Part shown: in pieces, positions 31,086 to 40,672 of the stretch | How positions within the stretch are numbered: position 1 is the first letter of the stretch | Layout of the letters: every line of letters begins with the position of its first letter | Assembly: GCA_039931165.1 (NCBI GenBank) | Contig: JBDTSL010000005.1 | Coordinates: 1-58,830 of the forward strand | From: Candidatus Doudnabacteria bacterium | GTDB taxonomy: Bacteria > Patescibacteriota > Doudnabacteria > UBA920 > O2-02-FULL-48-8 | Direction: 5' to 3' | DNA length: 58,830 nucleotides | Notes under the pieces: generated by a model | The model's database searches: none | Seen by the model: the letters and a program-made list of their open reading frames with translations, nothing else | Told to the model about the DNA's origin: nothing | Position numbers and translations under genes: made by a program

Positions 31086-31322
31086 TTATTTATTTTGAAG
31101 CAAAAATTTTATGATATTAACAAGGCTTTCCCAAATATTCTTCAGGATCGGGACGGAAGCGGGCAGAAGCACGATCAACAGAATAATATAAATGAAATCC
31201 TTGCGGATGACTTTATATATGCCTATCACAATCAGGACGGCTAATGCCAGCGAAACCACTCCGTGGAGATTGGCCGGGAAATAACTTAAAAACTGATTAT
31301 AAATGGATGTAATTTGCGCCAT
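31086..31322 (-). CDS. Small membrane protein
   Basis: 78 aa with two hydrophobic helices. Confidence 0.7.
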   Translation of the reverse strand: MAQITSIYNQFLSYFPANLHGVVSLALAVLIVIGIYKVIRKDFIYIILLIVLLPASVPILKNIWESLVNIIKFLLQNK

Positions 31323-31351: not shown

Positions 31352-31942
31352 TTAAAATTTATGGGCGATTTTAGAAAGGTTTCTATTTTTCAATTTGTCG
31401 ATGACTATCACCGGATTGTTCTCAAGAATATTTTTTACGAACCTGTCGCTCATGACCTTGCGGTATTCAAATTCATGAACGGTAAAAACCGTGTAACTGA
31501 TCTGCTGCTGGGCGAATTTTCCTGCCTGCTTGAGAAATCCCTGCAATTTTTTGGGACTGACCTTGCCCACGAACAAAACATCGGTTTCAACCCTGGGTTT
31601 GCCCACAAACACACCTGTCAAGATCACAAGCCTGCAATCCCCCATCTTGGACGCGGCTTTGGATAATAAGTCTGCCGGGATCTTTTTAACTTTCCGTAAA
31701 AGGTTCAAAAGCTCCGGGTAAAGCGGAAAGTTTCGGTTCATCTGGTAGTACTTGACGCGATTTTTTTGGGTGATGGACAAAAAATCCATCCTGATAAGTT
31801 CCTTCAAAGTTTCCTTAAGAAGCTTATTCGGGCAATCTGAACTGGCCTTGAGCTCGGTCTCAGAAAAGCTGCGCTGAGGGTGCGCCAAAAGCAAGTTTAT
31901 AAGATTCGTCTTTGGTTTAGAGGAAAGCAACTGTGCAAGCAT
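31352..31942 (-). CDS. Winged-HTH plus nucleotidyltransferase-like domain protein
   Basis: N-terminal wHTH (LLSSKPKTNLINLLL...YYQMNRNFPLYPEL); C-terminal LTGVFVG..ETDVLFVG...ISYTVFT. Confidence 0.75.
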   Translation of the reverse strand: MLAQLLSSKPKTNLINLLLAHPQRSFSETELKASSDCPNKLLKETLKELIRMDFLSITQKNRVKYYQMNRNFPLYPELLNLLRKVKKIPADLLSKAASKMGDCRLVILTGVFVGKPRVETDVLFVGKVSPKKLQGFLKQAGKFAQQQISYTVFTVHEFEYRKVMSDRFVKNILENNPVIVIDKLKNRNLSKIAHKF

Positions 31943-31999
31943 GCGAACATTATAGCATATATCGCCAAGCCAGAGAAAATATGCTACAATAACCGGGTT

Positions 32000-33892
32000 A
32001 TGTCGCGATTAGAAACCCAAATAAACCAAATCTATCTAAGTTCTCCGGATAACAAAAAATCCTCATTGATCCTGTACGAGGAAGCGATCAGCAATTCGGC
32101 CCACCTTTTCGTTTTGGCCGAGATCAGGAGCGTGCTCCGCAAATCGGATGCCGCTGACCTGAAAAAAATCTCGGAAATTATTCTCGAATCTTTCCGGTCA
32201 AACAAAAAACTGGCGGCCGAAACTTTGTTTGAAACTTCCCTGGCCCAGGTCAACCAAAACCTGGCTGACCTGGCGCACGCCGGCCATAAGTCCTGGGTCG
32301 GCAAATTTTCATGCCTGATCGCCCTAAAATCCGGAGAGAATATTTATGTCGCGAACAACGGCCAAACCTCGGCCTGGCTTTTGCGCAAATCGGAGCTGAT
32401 GGAGATCCTGAAACCGGAAAAACAGGGTATGCATCCGCTGAAGACTTTTACGAATTTCACGCAAGGCCGGCTTGTGGCAGGCGACGGGGTGATCATCACC
32501 ACTTCCAACATTTTCAATTTTGTTTCGGTAGAGCTGTTTGAAAGGATCCTTACAAACAAAGCTTTGCCGCAAGCGACTGACGAAATCTCAAAACTCCTGC
32601 TGGATCTGGGCAAAGAAGACCTGGGCTTTTCCACTTTCTTCCTGGAATTCAAAAAAAAGCAGGAAATGGAACCTCAATCTCATGCTAATCCCGTTCCCGT
32701 CTACGCGCCCCTTCCGGAAGAAATGGAAGAACCACAAACAAAAAGTACATGGCACATGCCTATAGTGCCTGGTCTTCCGAAATTCCAAATGCCGAAATTT
32801 AGCATGCCGGAAATGATACCCCGCATTAGCTGGAATTTTTTTCAGAACCTTTCAGCTTCCGGAAAATTTTTCTTTATCAGCTTTTCAATTTTTTTACTTC
32901 TTTTTTTGGGAAACCTTGGGGTTTATGGGATCAAACTGCACGGTAAAAATACGAATGATAAAATCGAAGCCCAAGCCCAGCTTTTGGCAAAAGACTTGTC
33001 GGATGCGCAATCTTCCCTGATTTACAAAAATACAACCGATGGACTGCGATATCTCAACCTAGCTGTGGCTGATTTCGATAGTCTTCAAAAACTCAGCGCT
33101 TCTAAAGCCTCTGAGTACCAAAAACAACTCCAGACCCTGAAAGATCAGATCAATAAGGTCAGCGTGGTTTCCGAGCCCAAGGTTCTGACCGAATTAAAGC
33201 ACCAGCCGATTTTCTTCAACCGCTCAAGTATTGGTTTTTTACTTACGAATCAGGATTCCAACACCTTGACGCTGTATGATTCAAACCTGAACGATTATTT
33301 TTTGCTCAACAGCCTTAAAGACAGTGTTACGGGAATCGGCTTTTATCAGCCCGCGGGCGTGGTGGTCTCTTCCGGCAGCTCCATCTATCATATTGACCAA
33401 ACCTTAAAACAGCTCGAACCGATCGTGACCGTGGCCAACGGAAAACTACAAGGAACGGAAGCTTACTCTTCCAATCTTTATAGTTTGAATCTTGCCGCCG
33501 ACCAAGTCGTCAAAATCGGCTTTTCAAAGAACAAATATTCCACCACTCTCATCAACGCCGGCAGTTTGCAAAATATCCGCGATTTTGGCCTGGACAAAGA
33601 TATTTATCTTCTCTACCCGGACAAATTAGTCAAAATCACGGGCGGCAAACAGATAGCGTTTGGCTATCCTAACCTTTCCGAGCCGATCACGAATGCGACC
33701 AAAATTTTCGTCGGGTCCAACCTATACATTTTGGAGTCCAATAAAAAACGCGTAGTCGTCCTCAATAAAAACGGGCAGCTGCTTAATCAGATTTATTTGC
33801 CGAACACCACCTTATTCGACCTGGTCGTAGATGAGGCTGCTCATAGCCTGTACCTGCTGGGTGATAATAAGCTTTATCAAATTACACTATAA
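32000..33892 (+). CDS. PP2C-like domain, TM and extracellular beta-propeller protein
   Basis: Start moved to the ATG at 32000; IYVANNGQTSAWLLR...GDGVIITTS; single TM at FFFISFSIFLLLFLG; propeller-type blades (LYILESNKKRVVVLNKNG). Confidence 0.75.
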   Translation: MSRLETQINQIYLSSPDNKKSSLILYEEAISNSAHLFVLAEIRSVLRKSDAADLKKISEIILESFRSNKKLAAETLFETSLAQVNQNLADLAHAGHKSWVGKFSCLIALKSGENIYVANNGQTSAWLLRKSELMEILKPEKQGMHPLKTFTNFTQGRLVAGDGVIITTSNIFNFVSVELFERILTNKALPQATDEISKLLLDLGKEDLGFSTFFLEFKKKQEMEPQSHANPVPVYAPLPEEMEEPQTKSTWHMPIVPGLPKFQMPKFSMPEMIPRISWNFFQNLSASGKFFFISFSIFLLLFLGNLGVYGIKLHGKNTNDKIEAQAQLLAKDLSDAQSSLIYKNTTDGLRYLNLAVADFDSLQKLSASKASEYQKQLQTLKDQINKVSVVSEPKVLTELKHQPIFFNRSSIGFLLTNQDSNTLTLYDSNLNDYFLLNSLKDSVTGIGFYQPAGVVVSSGSSIYHIDQTLKQLEPIVTVANGKLQGTEAYSSNLYSLNLAADQVVKIGFSKNKYSTTLINAGSLQNIRDFGLDKDIYLLYPDKLVKITGGKQIAFGYPNLSEPITNATKIFVGSNLYILESNKKRVVVLNKNGQLLNQIYLPNTTLFDLVVDEAAHSLYLLGDNKLYQITL

Positions 33893-33921: not shown

Positions 33922-33953
33922 AAAAAAAATCCTGAATAATTCAGGATTTTTTT
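33922..33953. terminator. Bidirectional terminator between convergent genes
   Basis: aaaaaaaatcctgaa-taa-ttcaggattttttt. Confidence 0.8.
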
Positions 33954-33982: not shown

Positions 33983-34588
33983 TTAACGGTAATCGTTCTT
34001 GCAGGCCCCCAAATATTTATTTATTTCTCCATTGTATATTGCCAGGCAATATAATTGGCCTGTAAAATTATCTCTCAAAGTCACCCAGGAATTGGTTTGG
34101 TTTACGGGCTCCGCAGACTCAACACCTGCTCCGGCTACCAAGCCGGCAGAGACTTTTACCGGCTCAATGGTTTCGGGCACGATGTTATTTAAAGCCTGCT
34201 CTGTCATAAACTTGCCGGGCAAAGATAAATTTAGATCTATATTTTCTGTAGCCAAAGCTTTCGGTTCCTTACTGAAGATCCGGGCAAATTCCTCATAAGT
34301 TGAATGAAAAACATAGTAAAGCGCCTGGTCCGAGTCCGGCTGGGATATTAATGATATATATGCCTGAGAGGACTGGTCGTAAAAAGCCGTAACTCCTTCA
34401 TAGATCTGGCCGAGCGTGTCAAAATAAGCCGCATCGCCTAAGGTTTGCTGCCAGGCAATGCCGAATTGGTGTTTAATATCATTCTGCAGGGAAGCCACTT
34501 CAGGGTCTTTTGAAGGGCTGATAACAAAAAACGCCGTCATCAAAACGAATATGCTTAAACCATAAAAAATTGACGAAACTTTCTGCAT
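33983..34588 (-). CDS. Membrane-anchored hypothetical protein (GVxxFYxQ paralogue 3)
   Basis: N-terminal TM; QIYEGVTAFYDQSS; C-terminal Cys pair. Confidence 0.75.
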   Translation of the reverse strand: MQKVSSIFYGLSIFVLMTAFFVISPSKDPEVASLQNDIKHQFGIAWQQTLGDAAYFDTLGQIYEGVTAFYDQSSQAYISLISQPDSDQALYYVFHSTYEEFARIFSKEPKALATENIDLNLSLPGKFMTEQALNNIVPETIEPVKVSAGLVAGAGVESAEPVNQTNSWVTLRDNFTGQLYCLAIYNGEINKYLGACKNDYR

Positions 34589-34590
34589 GT

Positions 34591-35046
34591 TTATCTGCTG
34601 TTAGGGGTTCCGGCTGCGGGAAAAAACGGCAAGCTATTGGAAACATCGAAAATCGCGGCCAGCTGGCCGCTGGATTGCTGATAAAAATCATATACGCCAT
34701 TGTAAATATACACGAACTCGGACCCAACTCCGGTCCCGTCGAGGTCCAGAAGCTGCATCATTTGAGTGGTGGCCTCTTGGTAAAACATGTTCACGTCTTG
34801 CGCCGTTTCGATCATCGGCTGGAATGCCAAGCTCATGTTCTGGACAGTTACTGAAATTTCTCCGGACATATCCAAAACTCCGACTGCTTTCTGCCAATCG
34901 GCTCGATTGCTTGAGAGAAACAATGCTCCTTCCAGAATCAACACTGCGGCCAAAACAACCGCAAGCTGAAATGTCGGATATTGTTTTTTTCGAAGCTTGG
35001 AAATTCGGTTGATTTTTTTGTTTTTTGAATTTATTTTTCTTGCCAT
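34591..35046 (-). CDS. Membrane-anchored hypothetical protein (paralogue 2)
   Basis: Basic N-terminus, TM; QDVNMFYQEAT and YIYNGVYDFYQQSS. Confidence 0.75.
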   Translation of the reverse strand: MARKINSKNKKINRISKLRKKQYPTFQLAVVLAAVLILEGALFLSSNRADWQKAVGVLDMSGEISVTVQNMSLAFQPMIETAQDVNMFYQEATTQMMQLLDLDGTGVGSEFVYIYNGVYDFYQQSSGQLAAIFDVSNSLPFFPAAGTPNSR

Positions 35047-35627
35047 AATATTTTTTGGGACCAGGTATTAATTATTGATTGTTTGATCGACTGCCACTCT
35101 GGTGGCGCAAAGCTGTAGGGTATGATAGCTTTCGGCGGACCGGCGGAAGTTTGAGGACATTTCTCCGCAGTCTGGGTAGTCTGCATATAGTCCTCGTCGA
35201 TCATGGCACCCGCGACGATCCCCGCTCTTGCCGATTTTCCCGAGCTTTCGAAGCTATACCTATAAGAATTCCGCTTTTCATAACCATAAACAAATTGGTC
35301 AGAATAATCGGCAAGTCCGTTGTAAGCCAGTTTGATGTATTGACCGGGAGCTTCGAAGACGTCAGCCGGCAATACCGCGATCTCGGTGAAAGCGATGTAA
35401 AACTGATTATAAAACTCTTCTTCGCCAGATAAAATCAGTTGTGCTTCTGCCAATGACTCGCCAACCTGTTGGTGGATATCAAGTACGCTCAAAGATCGAA
35501 TAACATTATTTTGCTGAGAAAAATTCAATCCGGAAAATAAAATGGTTGTGATTAAAAATATTCCAATTGTGATAAAAAATACCGCGGACGATTCAAAAAC
35601 ATTTAAATTTTGAAAATCGGTGTTCAT
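35031..35627 (-). CDS. Membrane-anchored hypothetical protein (paralogue 1)
   Basis: TM; LSGEEEFYNQF and LAYNGLADYSDQF. Confidence 0.75.
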   Translation of the reverse strand: MNTDFQNLNVFESSAVFFITIGIFLITTILFSGLNFSQQNNVIRSLSVLDIHQQVGESLAEAQLILSGEEEFYNQFYIAFTEIAVLPADVFEAPGQYIKLAYNGLADYSDQFVYGYEKRNSYRYSFESSGKSARAGIVAGAMIDEDYMQTTQTAEKCPQTSAGPPKAIIPYSFAPPEWQSIKQSIINTWSQKILWQEK

Positions 35628-35630
35628 ATT

Positions 35631-35873
35631 TTACATCAACAAATTTAAATATTTCGAAAGCTGCCTAAGCCGGCTTTTCGATTCCAGATGTTGCTTATTT
35701 AAATATTCAAAAAGGTCAGCTTTCGTGATAAGCCAATCCCTGCCGATCTTGCGTGCCCTGAGTTTTCCTTTGCGTGCCAACAGATTTAAATAATCGGCGC
35801 TATAAGGAGAGTGCTCGGCAGCTTCCTTTAGTGACAATAATTCAAATTTATCTTTTGTTTCTGTTTGAATCAT
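35631..35873 (-). CDS. Excisionase/MerR-like helix-turn-helix protein (HTH_17 type)
   Basis: LLSLKEAAEHSPYSADYLNLLARKGKLRARKIGRDWLIT; start chosen at ATG 35873 (alternative 35933). Confidence 0.85.
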   Translation of the reverse strand: MIQTETKDKFELLSLKEAAEHSPYSADYLNLLARKGKLRARKIGRDWLITKADLFEYLNKQHLESKSRLRQLSKYLNLLM

Positions 35874-36019
35874 TTTGTTTTCTCGTAAAAACAGATTAGG
35901 CCGCCCAAGAATTTTGTTTAGGCAGCCAAACATATTAAATTGTTTTTTATTTTGATTTCAGCACGATTTTGTATTGATTGGCGGCTATAGATCGGCTAAC
36001 CAATACTATATCTGTAAGT

Positions 36020-36048
36020 ATTATAGCAGAAAAAGACGCGGCTGTCAA
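36020..36048 (-). promoter_or_regulatory. Perfect-consensus sigma70 promoter for the HTH operon
   Basis: TTGACA-17 nt-TATAAT on the minus strand with a TG extension. Confidence 0.8.
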
Positions 36049-39004: not shown

Positions 39005-39134
39005 AAACACTTTCTTTTCTCAACTTACATATACAGTATAGCAGATTTCGGAAAAAAAAGCAACCCTGTCCGCCTGGTTGGCAAATGGGTTGCCTTATTT
39101 TTCTAAGTGCTAACACTTAATCGTAAAATATTTC

Positions 39135-40455: not shown

Positions 40456-40672
40456 GAGTTTTGTTTCGTTTAGCCCTCACTTGCCAGCACAAAAAAACCA
40501 AGGCCCTAAACGCGGGATTACTTGGCTTTTGACTGTTTGATTTGTTGTTTAGTTTCCATCAAGAATTTACTATATATATATTATAGCAGATTTATGTGTT
40601 ACCGTCAAGCTACTTTCTACGAACAAAAAAACCCGGCCTGATCAGGACCGGATCTTTATGTATTCCTTAAAA

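Follow-up and report, generated by a model that had tools for sequence, protein, structure and literature searches.

A Doudnabacteria operon of three paralogous membrane proteins with an HTH_17 protein and a candidate operator at its transcription start

The contig JBDTSL010000005.1 of a Candidatus Doudnabacteria genome (assembly GCA_039931165.1), of which the 58,830 nt analyzed are called the window hereafter, carries on its minus strand a compact operon (positions 33,983 to 36,048) coding for a small helix-turn-helix (HTH) protein, followed by three membrane-anchored proteins, designated A, B, and C. Judging from sequence comparisons, A, B, and C are a previously undescribed family of Doudnabacteria, and the HTH protein is a regulator of a known kind. 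A conserved box at the transcription start, newly identified here, is a candidate autoregulatory operator for this regulator. These elements can be combined into the model of a lineage-specific housekeeping operon, in which the HTH protein would repress its own transcription through the box, and A, B, and C would form a hetero-oligomeric envelope platform supporting envelope or surface proteins. The chances that this model is right or wrong appear evenly balanced. The features of the operon are listed below, in the order of transcription.

36020..36048, minus strand: sigma-70-type promoter, TTGACA (36048-36043), 17 nt, TATAAT (36025-36020)
35994..36016, minus strand: conserved box TACAGATATAGTATTGGTTAGCC at the transcription start, candidate HTH operator
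35874..35993, minus strand: rest of the 5' leader of about 140 nt, with a 5' hairpin, an A-rich element, and a second hairpin
35631..35873, minus strand: HTH_17 (excisionase/MerR-like) DNA-binding protein, 80 aa, no transmembrane segment, PF12728
35031..35627, minus strand: protein A, 198 aa, short N-terminus and one transmembrane segment (about residues 16-34)
34591..35046, minus strand: protein B, 151 aa, K/R-rich tail, transmembrane segment, and two helical units of about 29 aa
33983..34588, minus strand: protein C, 201 aa, N-terminal transmembrane anchor, three-helix region, linker, and two-Cys beta domain
33923..33953, bidirectional: intrinsic terminator, A7, 8-bp stem, and U8

Three paralogous membrane proteins

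A preliminary description, made from the letters of the window alone, had recognized no family for the three membrane proteins, and this was borne out. A, B, and C gave no match in Pfam, NCBIfam, PADLOC, or PHROGs, nor in the PDB by sequence and profile search. With Foldseek, no PDB match was obtained for B, while the best PDB match of C had an E-value of 0.58 and BFVD yielded none. No description of the family was found in the literature. Identification as type IV pilins or pseudopilins was rejected, as there was no match to PF07963 (N_methyl) at E ≤ 1, and the class III signal peptide motif (G|F/M-x-x-x-E) is absent from the N-termini of A, B, and C. Components of type IV secretion systems (T4SS; VirB2 PF18895, VirB5/TrbJ, and VirB8) were matched neither in Pfam and NCBIfam, for the three proteins, nor in the PDB by Foldseek, for B or C. 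Hidden Markov models (HMMs) of type IV pilus (T4P) and type II secretion system (T2SS) families did not match A, B, or C either.

The family is defined by an N-terminal transmembrane segment (TM), an LD-x-S turn, an F-Y-x-Q helix unit, and a G-x-V-A-G strand, in proteins encoded after rplL, and this set of features was found for A, B, and C. The helical unit of about 29 aa, as duplicated in B, reads f-x-x-f-x-x-G-V-N-x-F-Y-x-x-A-S-x-Q-M-x-x-L-L-D-x-S, and the G-V-x-x-F-Y-x-Q motif of the preliminary description is its core. Two copies are present in B and one in C, while the two copies of A are degenerate, the second being poorly conserved among orthologues. All paralogues share the single N-terminal TM, an 'f-L-D-f-S/H' turn following it, and a 'G-x-V-A-G-A/V-S' strand. 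The five motif strings quoted in the preliminary description are all present, and their similarity exceeds chance for B and C, but they are degenerate in A.

The relationship between the three proteins is best seen at the profile level. BLASTP only connects B and C (E 0.009, over 13 residues), which is nearly uninformative. Using family alignments built from syntenic-locus orthologues (A1 and A6 for B, A2 for C, A3 for A), profile-profile comparison related B to C with 96.8% probability (E 2.7e-10, 93 colinear columns) and B to A with 95.0% probability (E 3.8e-8, 76 columns). Once the TM was cut away, the scores were 54.4 for B-C and 35.9 for B-A, versus 11.1±2.8 and 10.2±2.1, respectively, for column-shuffled targets. 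The internal repeat of B was detected at 98.5% (score 60.8 versus a null of 8.8±1.8), and both of its copies match the single unit of C. Moreover, among all open reading frames (ORFs) of all fetched loci, the HMMs of A, B, and C only cross-hit one another. On these profile comparisons, the three proteins are considered paralogues, A and C being linked only through B; the significant similarity that had been anticipated among all three stood for B with C and for B with A, but not for A with C. One rearranged locus (L017:3082-3918) encodes a fourth paralogue, of 278 aa, in which a TM is combined with about five 'f-F-D-x-S/T' turns, a single FY unit, a strand reading GQVAGEE, and a tail that is acidic and Pro-rich. 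It shows the LD-x-S turn to be a repeat unit in its own right.

The occurrence of one N-terminal TM per protein, already noted in the window, extends to all 16 orthologue sets, in which A, B, and C each have exactly one hydrophobic N-terminal segment. An N-in/C-out orientation is deduced for B because its K/R-rich tail precedes the TM, with a mean of 9.4 K/R residues ahead of it versus 0.9 behind. The charge bias of A is neutral, and its topology is presumed from its homology to B. Protein A is further marked by the motifs ILD-x-H and EEFYNQFY, a G-x-V-x-G-A strand, and a PYSFAPPEW tail. In B, the helical units span residues 75-103 and 108-136 (34738-34824 and 34639-34725 on the DNA), the TM carries an invariant Glu (LILEG), and the C-terminal VAG-type strand is degenerate in the window (AAGTPNS). 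The helical unit of C spans residues 54-82 (34343-34429), and its disordered linker, bearing FMTE..NIVP and G-x-VAGA, leads to the two-Cys beta domain (residues 161-201; 33986-34108). This C-terminal domain is near-invariant (PVN..W-V-T-x-x-D-N-x-T-G-Q-x-Y-C-L-A-I-Y-N-G-E-V-N-K-Y-L-G-x-C) and contains the only two cysteines of the protein in 16/16 orthologues, a pair, C181/C196, that fits an extracytoplasmic disulfide.

The AlphaFold2 (AF2) model of B, based on a 98-sequence alignment, is all-helical (TM 25-45; helices 48-57, 61-100, and 109-133; floppy tail), with a predicted local distance difference test (pLDDT) of 72 and a predicted template modeling score (pTM) of 0.30. That of C (pLDDT 64, pTM 0.28) comprises the TM and three helices (29-105), a disordered stretch (106-165), and a three-stranded sheet (167-193). 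This combination of good secondary and poor tertiary confidence is compatible with subunits of a helical hetero-bundle that need their partners, without being proof of it.

The family has a narrow taxonomic range. Protein C has 24 relatives at ≥43% identity in an index of 5.8 billion proteins, and the B profile retrieved about 97 clusters (50% identity) from 1.84 billion representatives, all of 105-168 aa; two odd long matches of the latter search (P0126 and P0130) were discarded as unrelated repeat proteins. All named sources are Candidatus Doudnabacteria, or evident mislabels on short contigs, so that the family is regarded as Doudnabacteria-specific, and not as spread across the Candidate Phyla Radiation (CPR). 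The order of the locus is CAP - YceG - rplJ - rplL - [HTH] - A - B - C - (variable gene) - convergent ~630-aa protein - 196 aa - 78 aa - mraZ - rsmH. It was seen in more than 25 loci, namely the window, those of assemblies and GTDB species representatives (L001-L018), and metagenomic ones (L020-L033, L100). Protein A orthologues occur in 14/16 loci of the first set. The co-occurrence of the trio is thus conserved, as had been expected, with the same order and chromosomal site in all lineages examined except L001/L002 and L099; this last locus consists of the HTH gene, a B-like gene, and a truncated C, and L017, with its extra paralogue, is reshuffled. The architectures remain orthologue-specific across lineages down to about 30% identity: the basic tail and TM Glu in B, the Cys domain in C, and the PYSFAPPEW tail in A.

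The HTH protein and the box at the transcription start

For the HTH gene, the 80-aa start is preferred over that of a 100-aa ORF because the orthologues are 76-78 aa long. The protein matches Pfam PF12728 HTH_17 (E 3.2e-10, 40.5 bits for a cut-off of 27, profile positions 1-50 of 51) and NCBIfam TIGR01764 'excise' (29.5 bits for a cut-off of 28.8), both above cut-off, which confirms the excisionase-like HTH of 80 aa that had been proposed; it also matches PHROG excisionase families. No hydrophobic segment was found in it. It is made up of the HTH_17 domain and a highly conserved C-terminal tail of about 20 aa, and its stop lies 3 nt from the start of A. Its mean column identity reaches 75% (11 orthologues), versus 43-53% for A, B, and C, and it is under strong purifying selection.

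As illustrated by BldC of Streptomyces, small HTH_17-type proteins can be chromosomal transcription regulators and not excisionases (PMC5859096). Like BldC and the Xis/TorI-type proteins, the HTH protein is a stand-alone domain of about 70-80 aa, devoid of an effector or coiled-coil dimerization domain. Unlike BldC, it is tied to one membrane-protein operon and has the conserved C-terminal tail; in addition, BldC binds head-to-tail to AATTxxxxC direct repeats upstream (PMC5859096), whereas the candidate site described below has dyads (GATAC-A-GTATC, GGCTAGCC) at +1. Sequence and profile searches of the PDB with the HTH protein retrieved neither BldC nor any solved HTH_17 structure, and on these searches the relation to BldC is only architectural.

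A metagenome scan with the HTH profile yielded 80 loci. Relatives at ≥70% identity, where enough downstream DNA was available, always have A-B-C next to them. At 46-54% identity, they are either N-terminal domains of giant HTH-linker-TM-ectodomain proteins (L039, L040, L044, L045, L056) or overlap by 4 nt the gene of a large N-terminal-TM protein (L035-L038), and those more distant still are ordinary small HTH genes. The synteny across CPR that had been suggested was not found: in other Patescibacteria, giant single-pass surface proteins take the place of the trio, either following a more distant HTH relative or being fused to it. Two metagenomic Patescibacteria loci (L039, L042) encode two tandem HTH_17 domains and then a linker, to which L039 adds a TM and a giant ectodomain; together with the single-HTH fusions (L040, L044, L045, L056), L039 makes the HTH-TM-fiber architecture a recurrent one in Patescibacteria.

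The HTH gene is missing in six lineages that retain A-B-C (L003, L004/5, L009/12, L015, L016, L100). An obligatory link between HTH protein and trio is therefore not supported, given that promoter and trio persist in these lineages in the absence of the HTH gene. The HTH-less loci are scattered on the B+C tree, on which at least four changes are needed to explain them.

The perfect TTGACA-17-TATAAT promoter reported earlier was recovered with a score of 12/12, and a TG precedes the -10 to form an extended -10 (TGCTATAAT). It is separated from the 80-aa ORF by 146 nt on the minus strand, and orthologous loci keep the same promoter, whether or not the HTH gene is present. The predicted fold of the leader has an energy of -32.5 kcal/mol (z -3.5), with the A-rich element at about 35941-35959 and the second, lineage-variable hairpin at about 35899-35927. 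Conservation of the A-rich AAGAAACAAAAAGAAAA-like element extends to HTH-bearing and HTH-less loci alike, and among lineages the start codon lies 75 to 204 nt from the -10. Rfam gave no match for the leader or the operon, and RNAalifold on 11 leaders gave no consensus structure, the alignment being poor. The ORF coordinates reproduce the gene packing described before, with gaps of 3, -16, and 2 nt. The bidirectional terminator proposed for the operon end is also present, as an A-run, hairpin, and U-run (-14.2 kcal/mol, z -4.8) common to the operon and the convergent 670-aa gene, which a simple terminator scan had overlooked.

The variable hairpins look insertion-like. An extra GC-rich hairpin of 40-100 nt is found between the A-rich element and the HTH start in a lineage-specific manner, in the window (35899-35927, minus strand), L001, L006, L008, and L013, while the 5' untranslated regions of L007, L010, L018, L021, and L031 are free of it. 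In L014 (2603-2752), and likewise in L033, the complete HTH gene is immediately preceded by a 5' fragment of it, which comprises the first 25 codons and runs into GC-rich sequence unrelated to the gene; this fragment is either a partial duplication or an insertion footprint in the leader.

Alignment of the promoter regions revealed the box. The consensus after the -10 is TGCTATAAT-n-a-t-t-n-CAGATAtAGTATnGgTTAGCC, and the conserved box ACAGATAYAGTATNGGYTAGCC, whose segments include a GATA core and GGTTAGCC, starts exactly 7 nt past the -10. A strict query, the 13-mer GATAYAGTATBGG, was found 16 times in 505 kb of fetched DNA, each time 7 nt after the -10 of the operon promoter and never elsewhere; the window holds one copy. 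When looser variants are taken in (L011, L017, L028), the box is present in 19/20 distinct HTH-bearing lineages and in 0/6 HTH-less ones. It has dyad character, GATAC-A-GTATC being perfect in L007 and TATCGGCTAGCCGAT near-perfect in L021 and L031, and predicted leader folds leave its first 11 nt unpaired. Its offset to the -10 is constant, while the distance to the start codon varies between 75 and 204 nt. The HTH-less lineages keep the promoter, the 5' hairpin, and the A-rich element AAGAAACAAAAAGAAAA between the box site and the first gene, and because these flanking elements are kept, the box probably disappeared through drift, rather than together with the HTH gene in a single deletion. 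A fixed offset to the -10 and loss exactly where the HTH gene is lost constitute the pattern that a DNA operator predicts. The co-occurrence of box and HTH gene is an indirect support for the autoregulation that had been put forward, but the candidate operator lies just downstream of the -10, at 36016-35994, and not at 36020-36048, near which it had been expected.

Two other sites of the window resemble parts of this arrangement. A box-like match with 2 mismatches (39026-39039) overlaps the -10 of another promoter. The sole other TTGAC-17-TGCTATAAT promoter (40580-40608, minus strand) is followed by ATATATATAGTAA, which has ATATAGTA in common with the HTH box, at a different offset, and which may be due to chance in AT-rich DNA.

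Proposed role and competing explanations

The proposed model can be described as follows. Its sequence-based part is taken as shown: the strong consensus promoter drives the HTH_17 gene together with those of the three paralogous single-pass membrane proteins. These descend from a single ancestor made of a TM anchor, an 'LD-x-S' turn, at least one 'G-V-x-x-F-Y-x-Q...LLD-x-S' helix of about 29 aa, and a 'G-x-V-A-G' strand. All three would be inserted N-in/C-out, and their ectodomains may assemble through the FY helices and VAG strands, a predicted interaction, into a stalk or platform on the outer face, to which C would supply a distal, disulfide-stapled beta head. Such a platform would serve envelope or surface functions and, in some lineages, probably works with a co-translated secreted protein that has a VirB2-type hairpin anchor. 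By binding to the box at +1 to +23, the HTH protein would damp an otherwise constitutive strong promoter, which amounts to negative autoregulation, and in lineages that lost the HTH gene, the box would have decayed too and expression of the trio would be constitutive.

Several observations weigh against this model. The B+C tree is weakly supported, and its well-supported branches are compatible with a single loss of the HTH gene. One divergent HTH-bearing locus (L099) has neither the box nor a consensus promoter within 166 nt upstream. The box overlaps an arm of the 5' RNA hairpin, because of which an RNA-level role of the box is possible; such a role of the transcript 5' end is the chief alternative to the operator reading. 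Among public runs, the window sequence was found in three rhizosphere DNA metagenomes only, and in no RNA-seq run. Regarding the platform, the profile-profile comparison of A with C was not significant (6%), and their score with the TM cut away does not exceed the column-shuffled null. Protein A is missing in L001/L002 and L099, so that a strict three-part complex is not universal, and the hairpin HMM found no match, hence no VirB2-anchored partner gene, in the window.

Instead of being a transcription factor for this promoter, the HTH protein could be a detached cytoplasmic 'head', docking on the tails of A or B at the membrane and tethering DNA or binding another protein in a RodZ-like manner, the box then being an element of the 5' RNA or of the initially transcribed region. 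In favor of this are the nearest non-orthologous HTH relatives, either fused to a TM and giant ectodomain or overlapping the gene of a large TM protein, the 3 nt separating the HTH stop from the start of A, the high conservation of the HTH tail beyond the DNA-binding fold, and the long basic cytoplasmic tail of B. Nevertheless, the HTH protein has no TM, and six lineages maintain A, B, and C unaltered in its absence. The box stays fixed to the -10 though its spacing to the HTH start codon differs by about 130 nt among lineages, and it is lost exactly with the HTH gene. Overall, this alternative seems unlikely, though it deserves some weight. The known systems that it calls to mind are those of the ToxR/TcpP/CadC class, in which, as here, a DNA-binding head is genetically coupled to single-pass N-in/C-out membrane proteins; the likeness extends to the HTH_17-linker-TM-ectodomain proteins of Patescibacteria, where the closest non-orthologous HTH relatives are physically fused to such membrane proteins. 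Unlike ToxR-like regulators, however, the HTH protein is separate, soluble, and dispensable in six lineages, with no TM in the same polypeptide, and it has a MerR-like fold, not an OmpR-type winged helix, and no recognizable signal-sensing domain; fused forms are confined to relatives of 46-53% identity.

The slot following C suggests a different role for the trio. The C stop of L008, L013, L014/L033, and L016 is overlapped by the gene of a secreted protein (547-976 aa) whose start lies 14 nt ahead of it, and L017 has one of 1000 aa, a short distance behind the relocated B. The proteins of these five lineages end in a double-TM hairpin that matches T4SS_pilin PF18895 above cut-off, and the lineages bearing them include the two most divergent (L016, L017). 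A, B, and C could thus be accessories of a VirB2-pilin-based or other pilus-like structure, for example, adaptors inserting, oligomerizing, or presenting hairpin-anchored exoproteins, the more so as such VirB2/TrbC-type proteins directly follow the trio in five related lineages, overlapping the C end in four, and as the G-x-VAG strand and the small beta domain of C might act by strand complementation. However, most lineages, including that of the window, have no such gene at this site, and unrelated genes fill it elsewhere: a collagen-like secreted protein (L006), a 550-aa coiled-coil protein (L010, L031), a metalloprotease-like protein, or other genes (L009), the slot being empty in the window, L001, L007, L011, and L018. 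A, B, and C are themselves unrelated to PF18895 and match no T4SS, T4P, or T2SS family, class III signal peptides are lacking, Foldseek detected no VirB5, VirB8, or PilN/PilO-like fold, and no other T4SS genes occur at the locus. A role as pilus accessories is consequently rather improbable, and the PF18895 link is best taken as a suggestive hint of a surface-display role that is not obligatory. A bolder conjecture would unite the HTH protein, A, B, C, and, where present, the exoprotein with its VirB2 hairpin in a T4SS-independent, Doudnabacteria-specific surface apparatus, in which the trio, as a membrane platform, would hold or present surface proteins by strand complementation through its shared G-x-VAG strands and the disulfide-stapled beta head of C, and a dedicated BldC-like repressor on the transcription start would set the output; the prospects of this conjecture being correct are slight.

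A, B, and C might also not assemble at all, being partly redundant paralogues (e.g., small surface or stress proteins) that are adjacent through tandem duplication and conserved order. The order of the whole neighborhood is conserved, so adjacency is weak evidence for interaction, and A is dispensable in two lineages, while extra paralogues exist in L017. Yet distinct orthologue-specific architectures kept to about 30% identity, in a fixed order and with coupled reading frames, are typical of subunits with separate roles, which leaves little probability for this explanation.

Type IV pili (PilN/PilO) and T2SS (GspL/GspM) likewise contain small paralogous proteins encoded side by side, each having a short N-terminus in the cytoplasm, one TM, and a helical region beyond the membrane, and these form hetero-oligomers. 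Unlike these, A, B, and C show no HMM or fold similarity to such proteins, and no PilM, PilB, or PilC-type genes are adjacent. The ectodomains of B and C consist of helical repeats and disorder in the AF2 models, with a three-strand sheet in C, and lack the ferredoxin-like core of PilN/PilO. The PilN/PilO-type and ToxR-like analogies both fail at every point on which membership can be tested. Lastly, a remnant of a mobile element (excisionase gene plus cargo) is extremely improbable and was rejected, along with a functional excisionase: the HTH protein does match TIGR01764 and PHROG excisionase families, but there is no integrase in the flanks and no att-like repeat, all lineages have the unit at one place, between rplL and the dcw cluster, the HTH gene is under strong purifying selection, and neither PHROG nor PADLOC matches were obtained for A, B, and C.

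Neighboring genes and significance for Doudnabacteria

Besides the trio, every lineage examined carries three further genes, for which Pfam gave weak matches at most. In the window, they encode the convergent protein of about 630-670 aa (31880-33892, plus strand), comprising a cytoplasmic domain, one TM, and an external repeat domain, an HTH-like protein of 196 aa (31352-31942, minus strand), and a membrane protein of 78 aa (31086-31322, minus strand). In two loci (L028:3714-4265 and L099:4082-4504), a four-helix gene of the 23S-rRNA-intervening-sequence type, with a PF05635 match in L099, is inserted between the HTH gene and the next gene of the operon, and looks like a selfish cassette.

The presumed host-attached lifestyle of CPR/Patescibacteria relies on cell-surface machinery, and most of their envelope proteins are unannotated. 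For the biology of CPR, the operon is unsurprising, yet the regulator and its candidate operator form an unusually clean pair, and the trio a defined candidate envelope module. If A, B, and C do form an assembly platform, they would represent a new kind of envelope module, and the family would deserve a name; if not, the operon would be one of many lineage-specific membrane-protein clusters. The operator prediction lends itself to tests in E. coli or in vitro, for which the uncultivated organism need not be grown. In either case, Doudnabacteria possess a phylum-restricted orphan family with three differentiated paralogues, a fixed site in the core genome, a dedicated regulator, and a precisely placed candidate operator.

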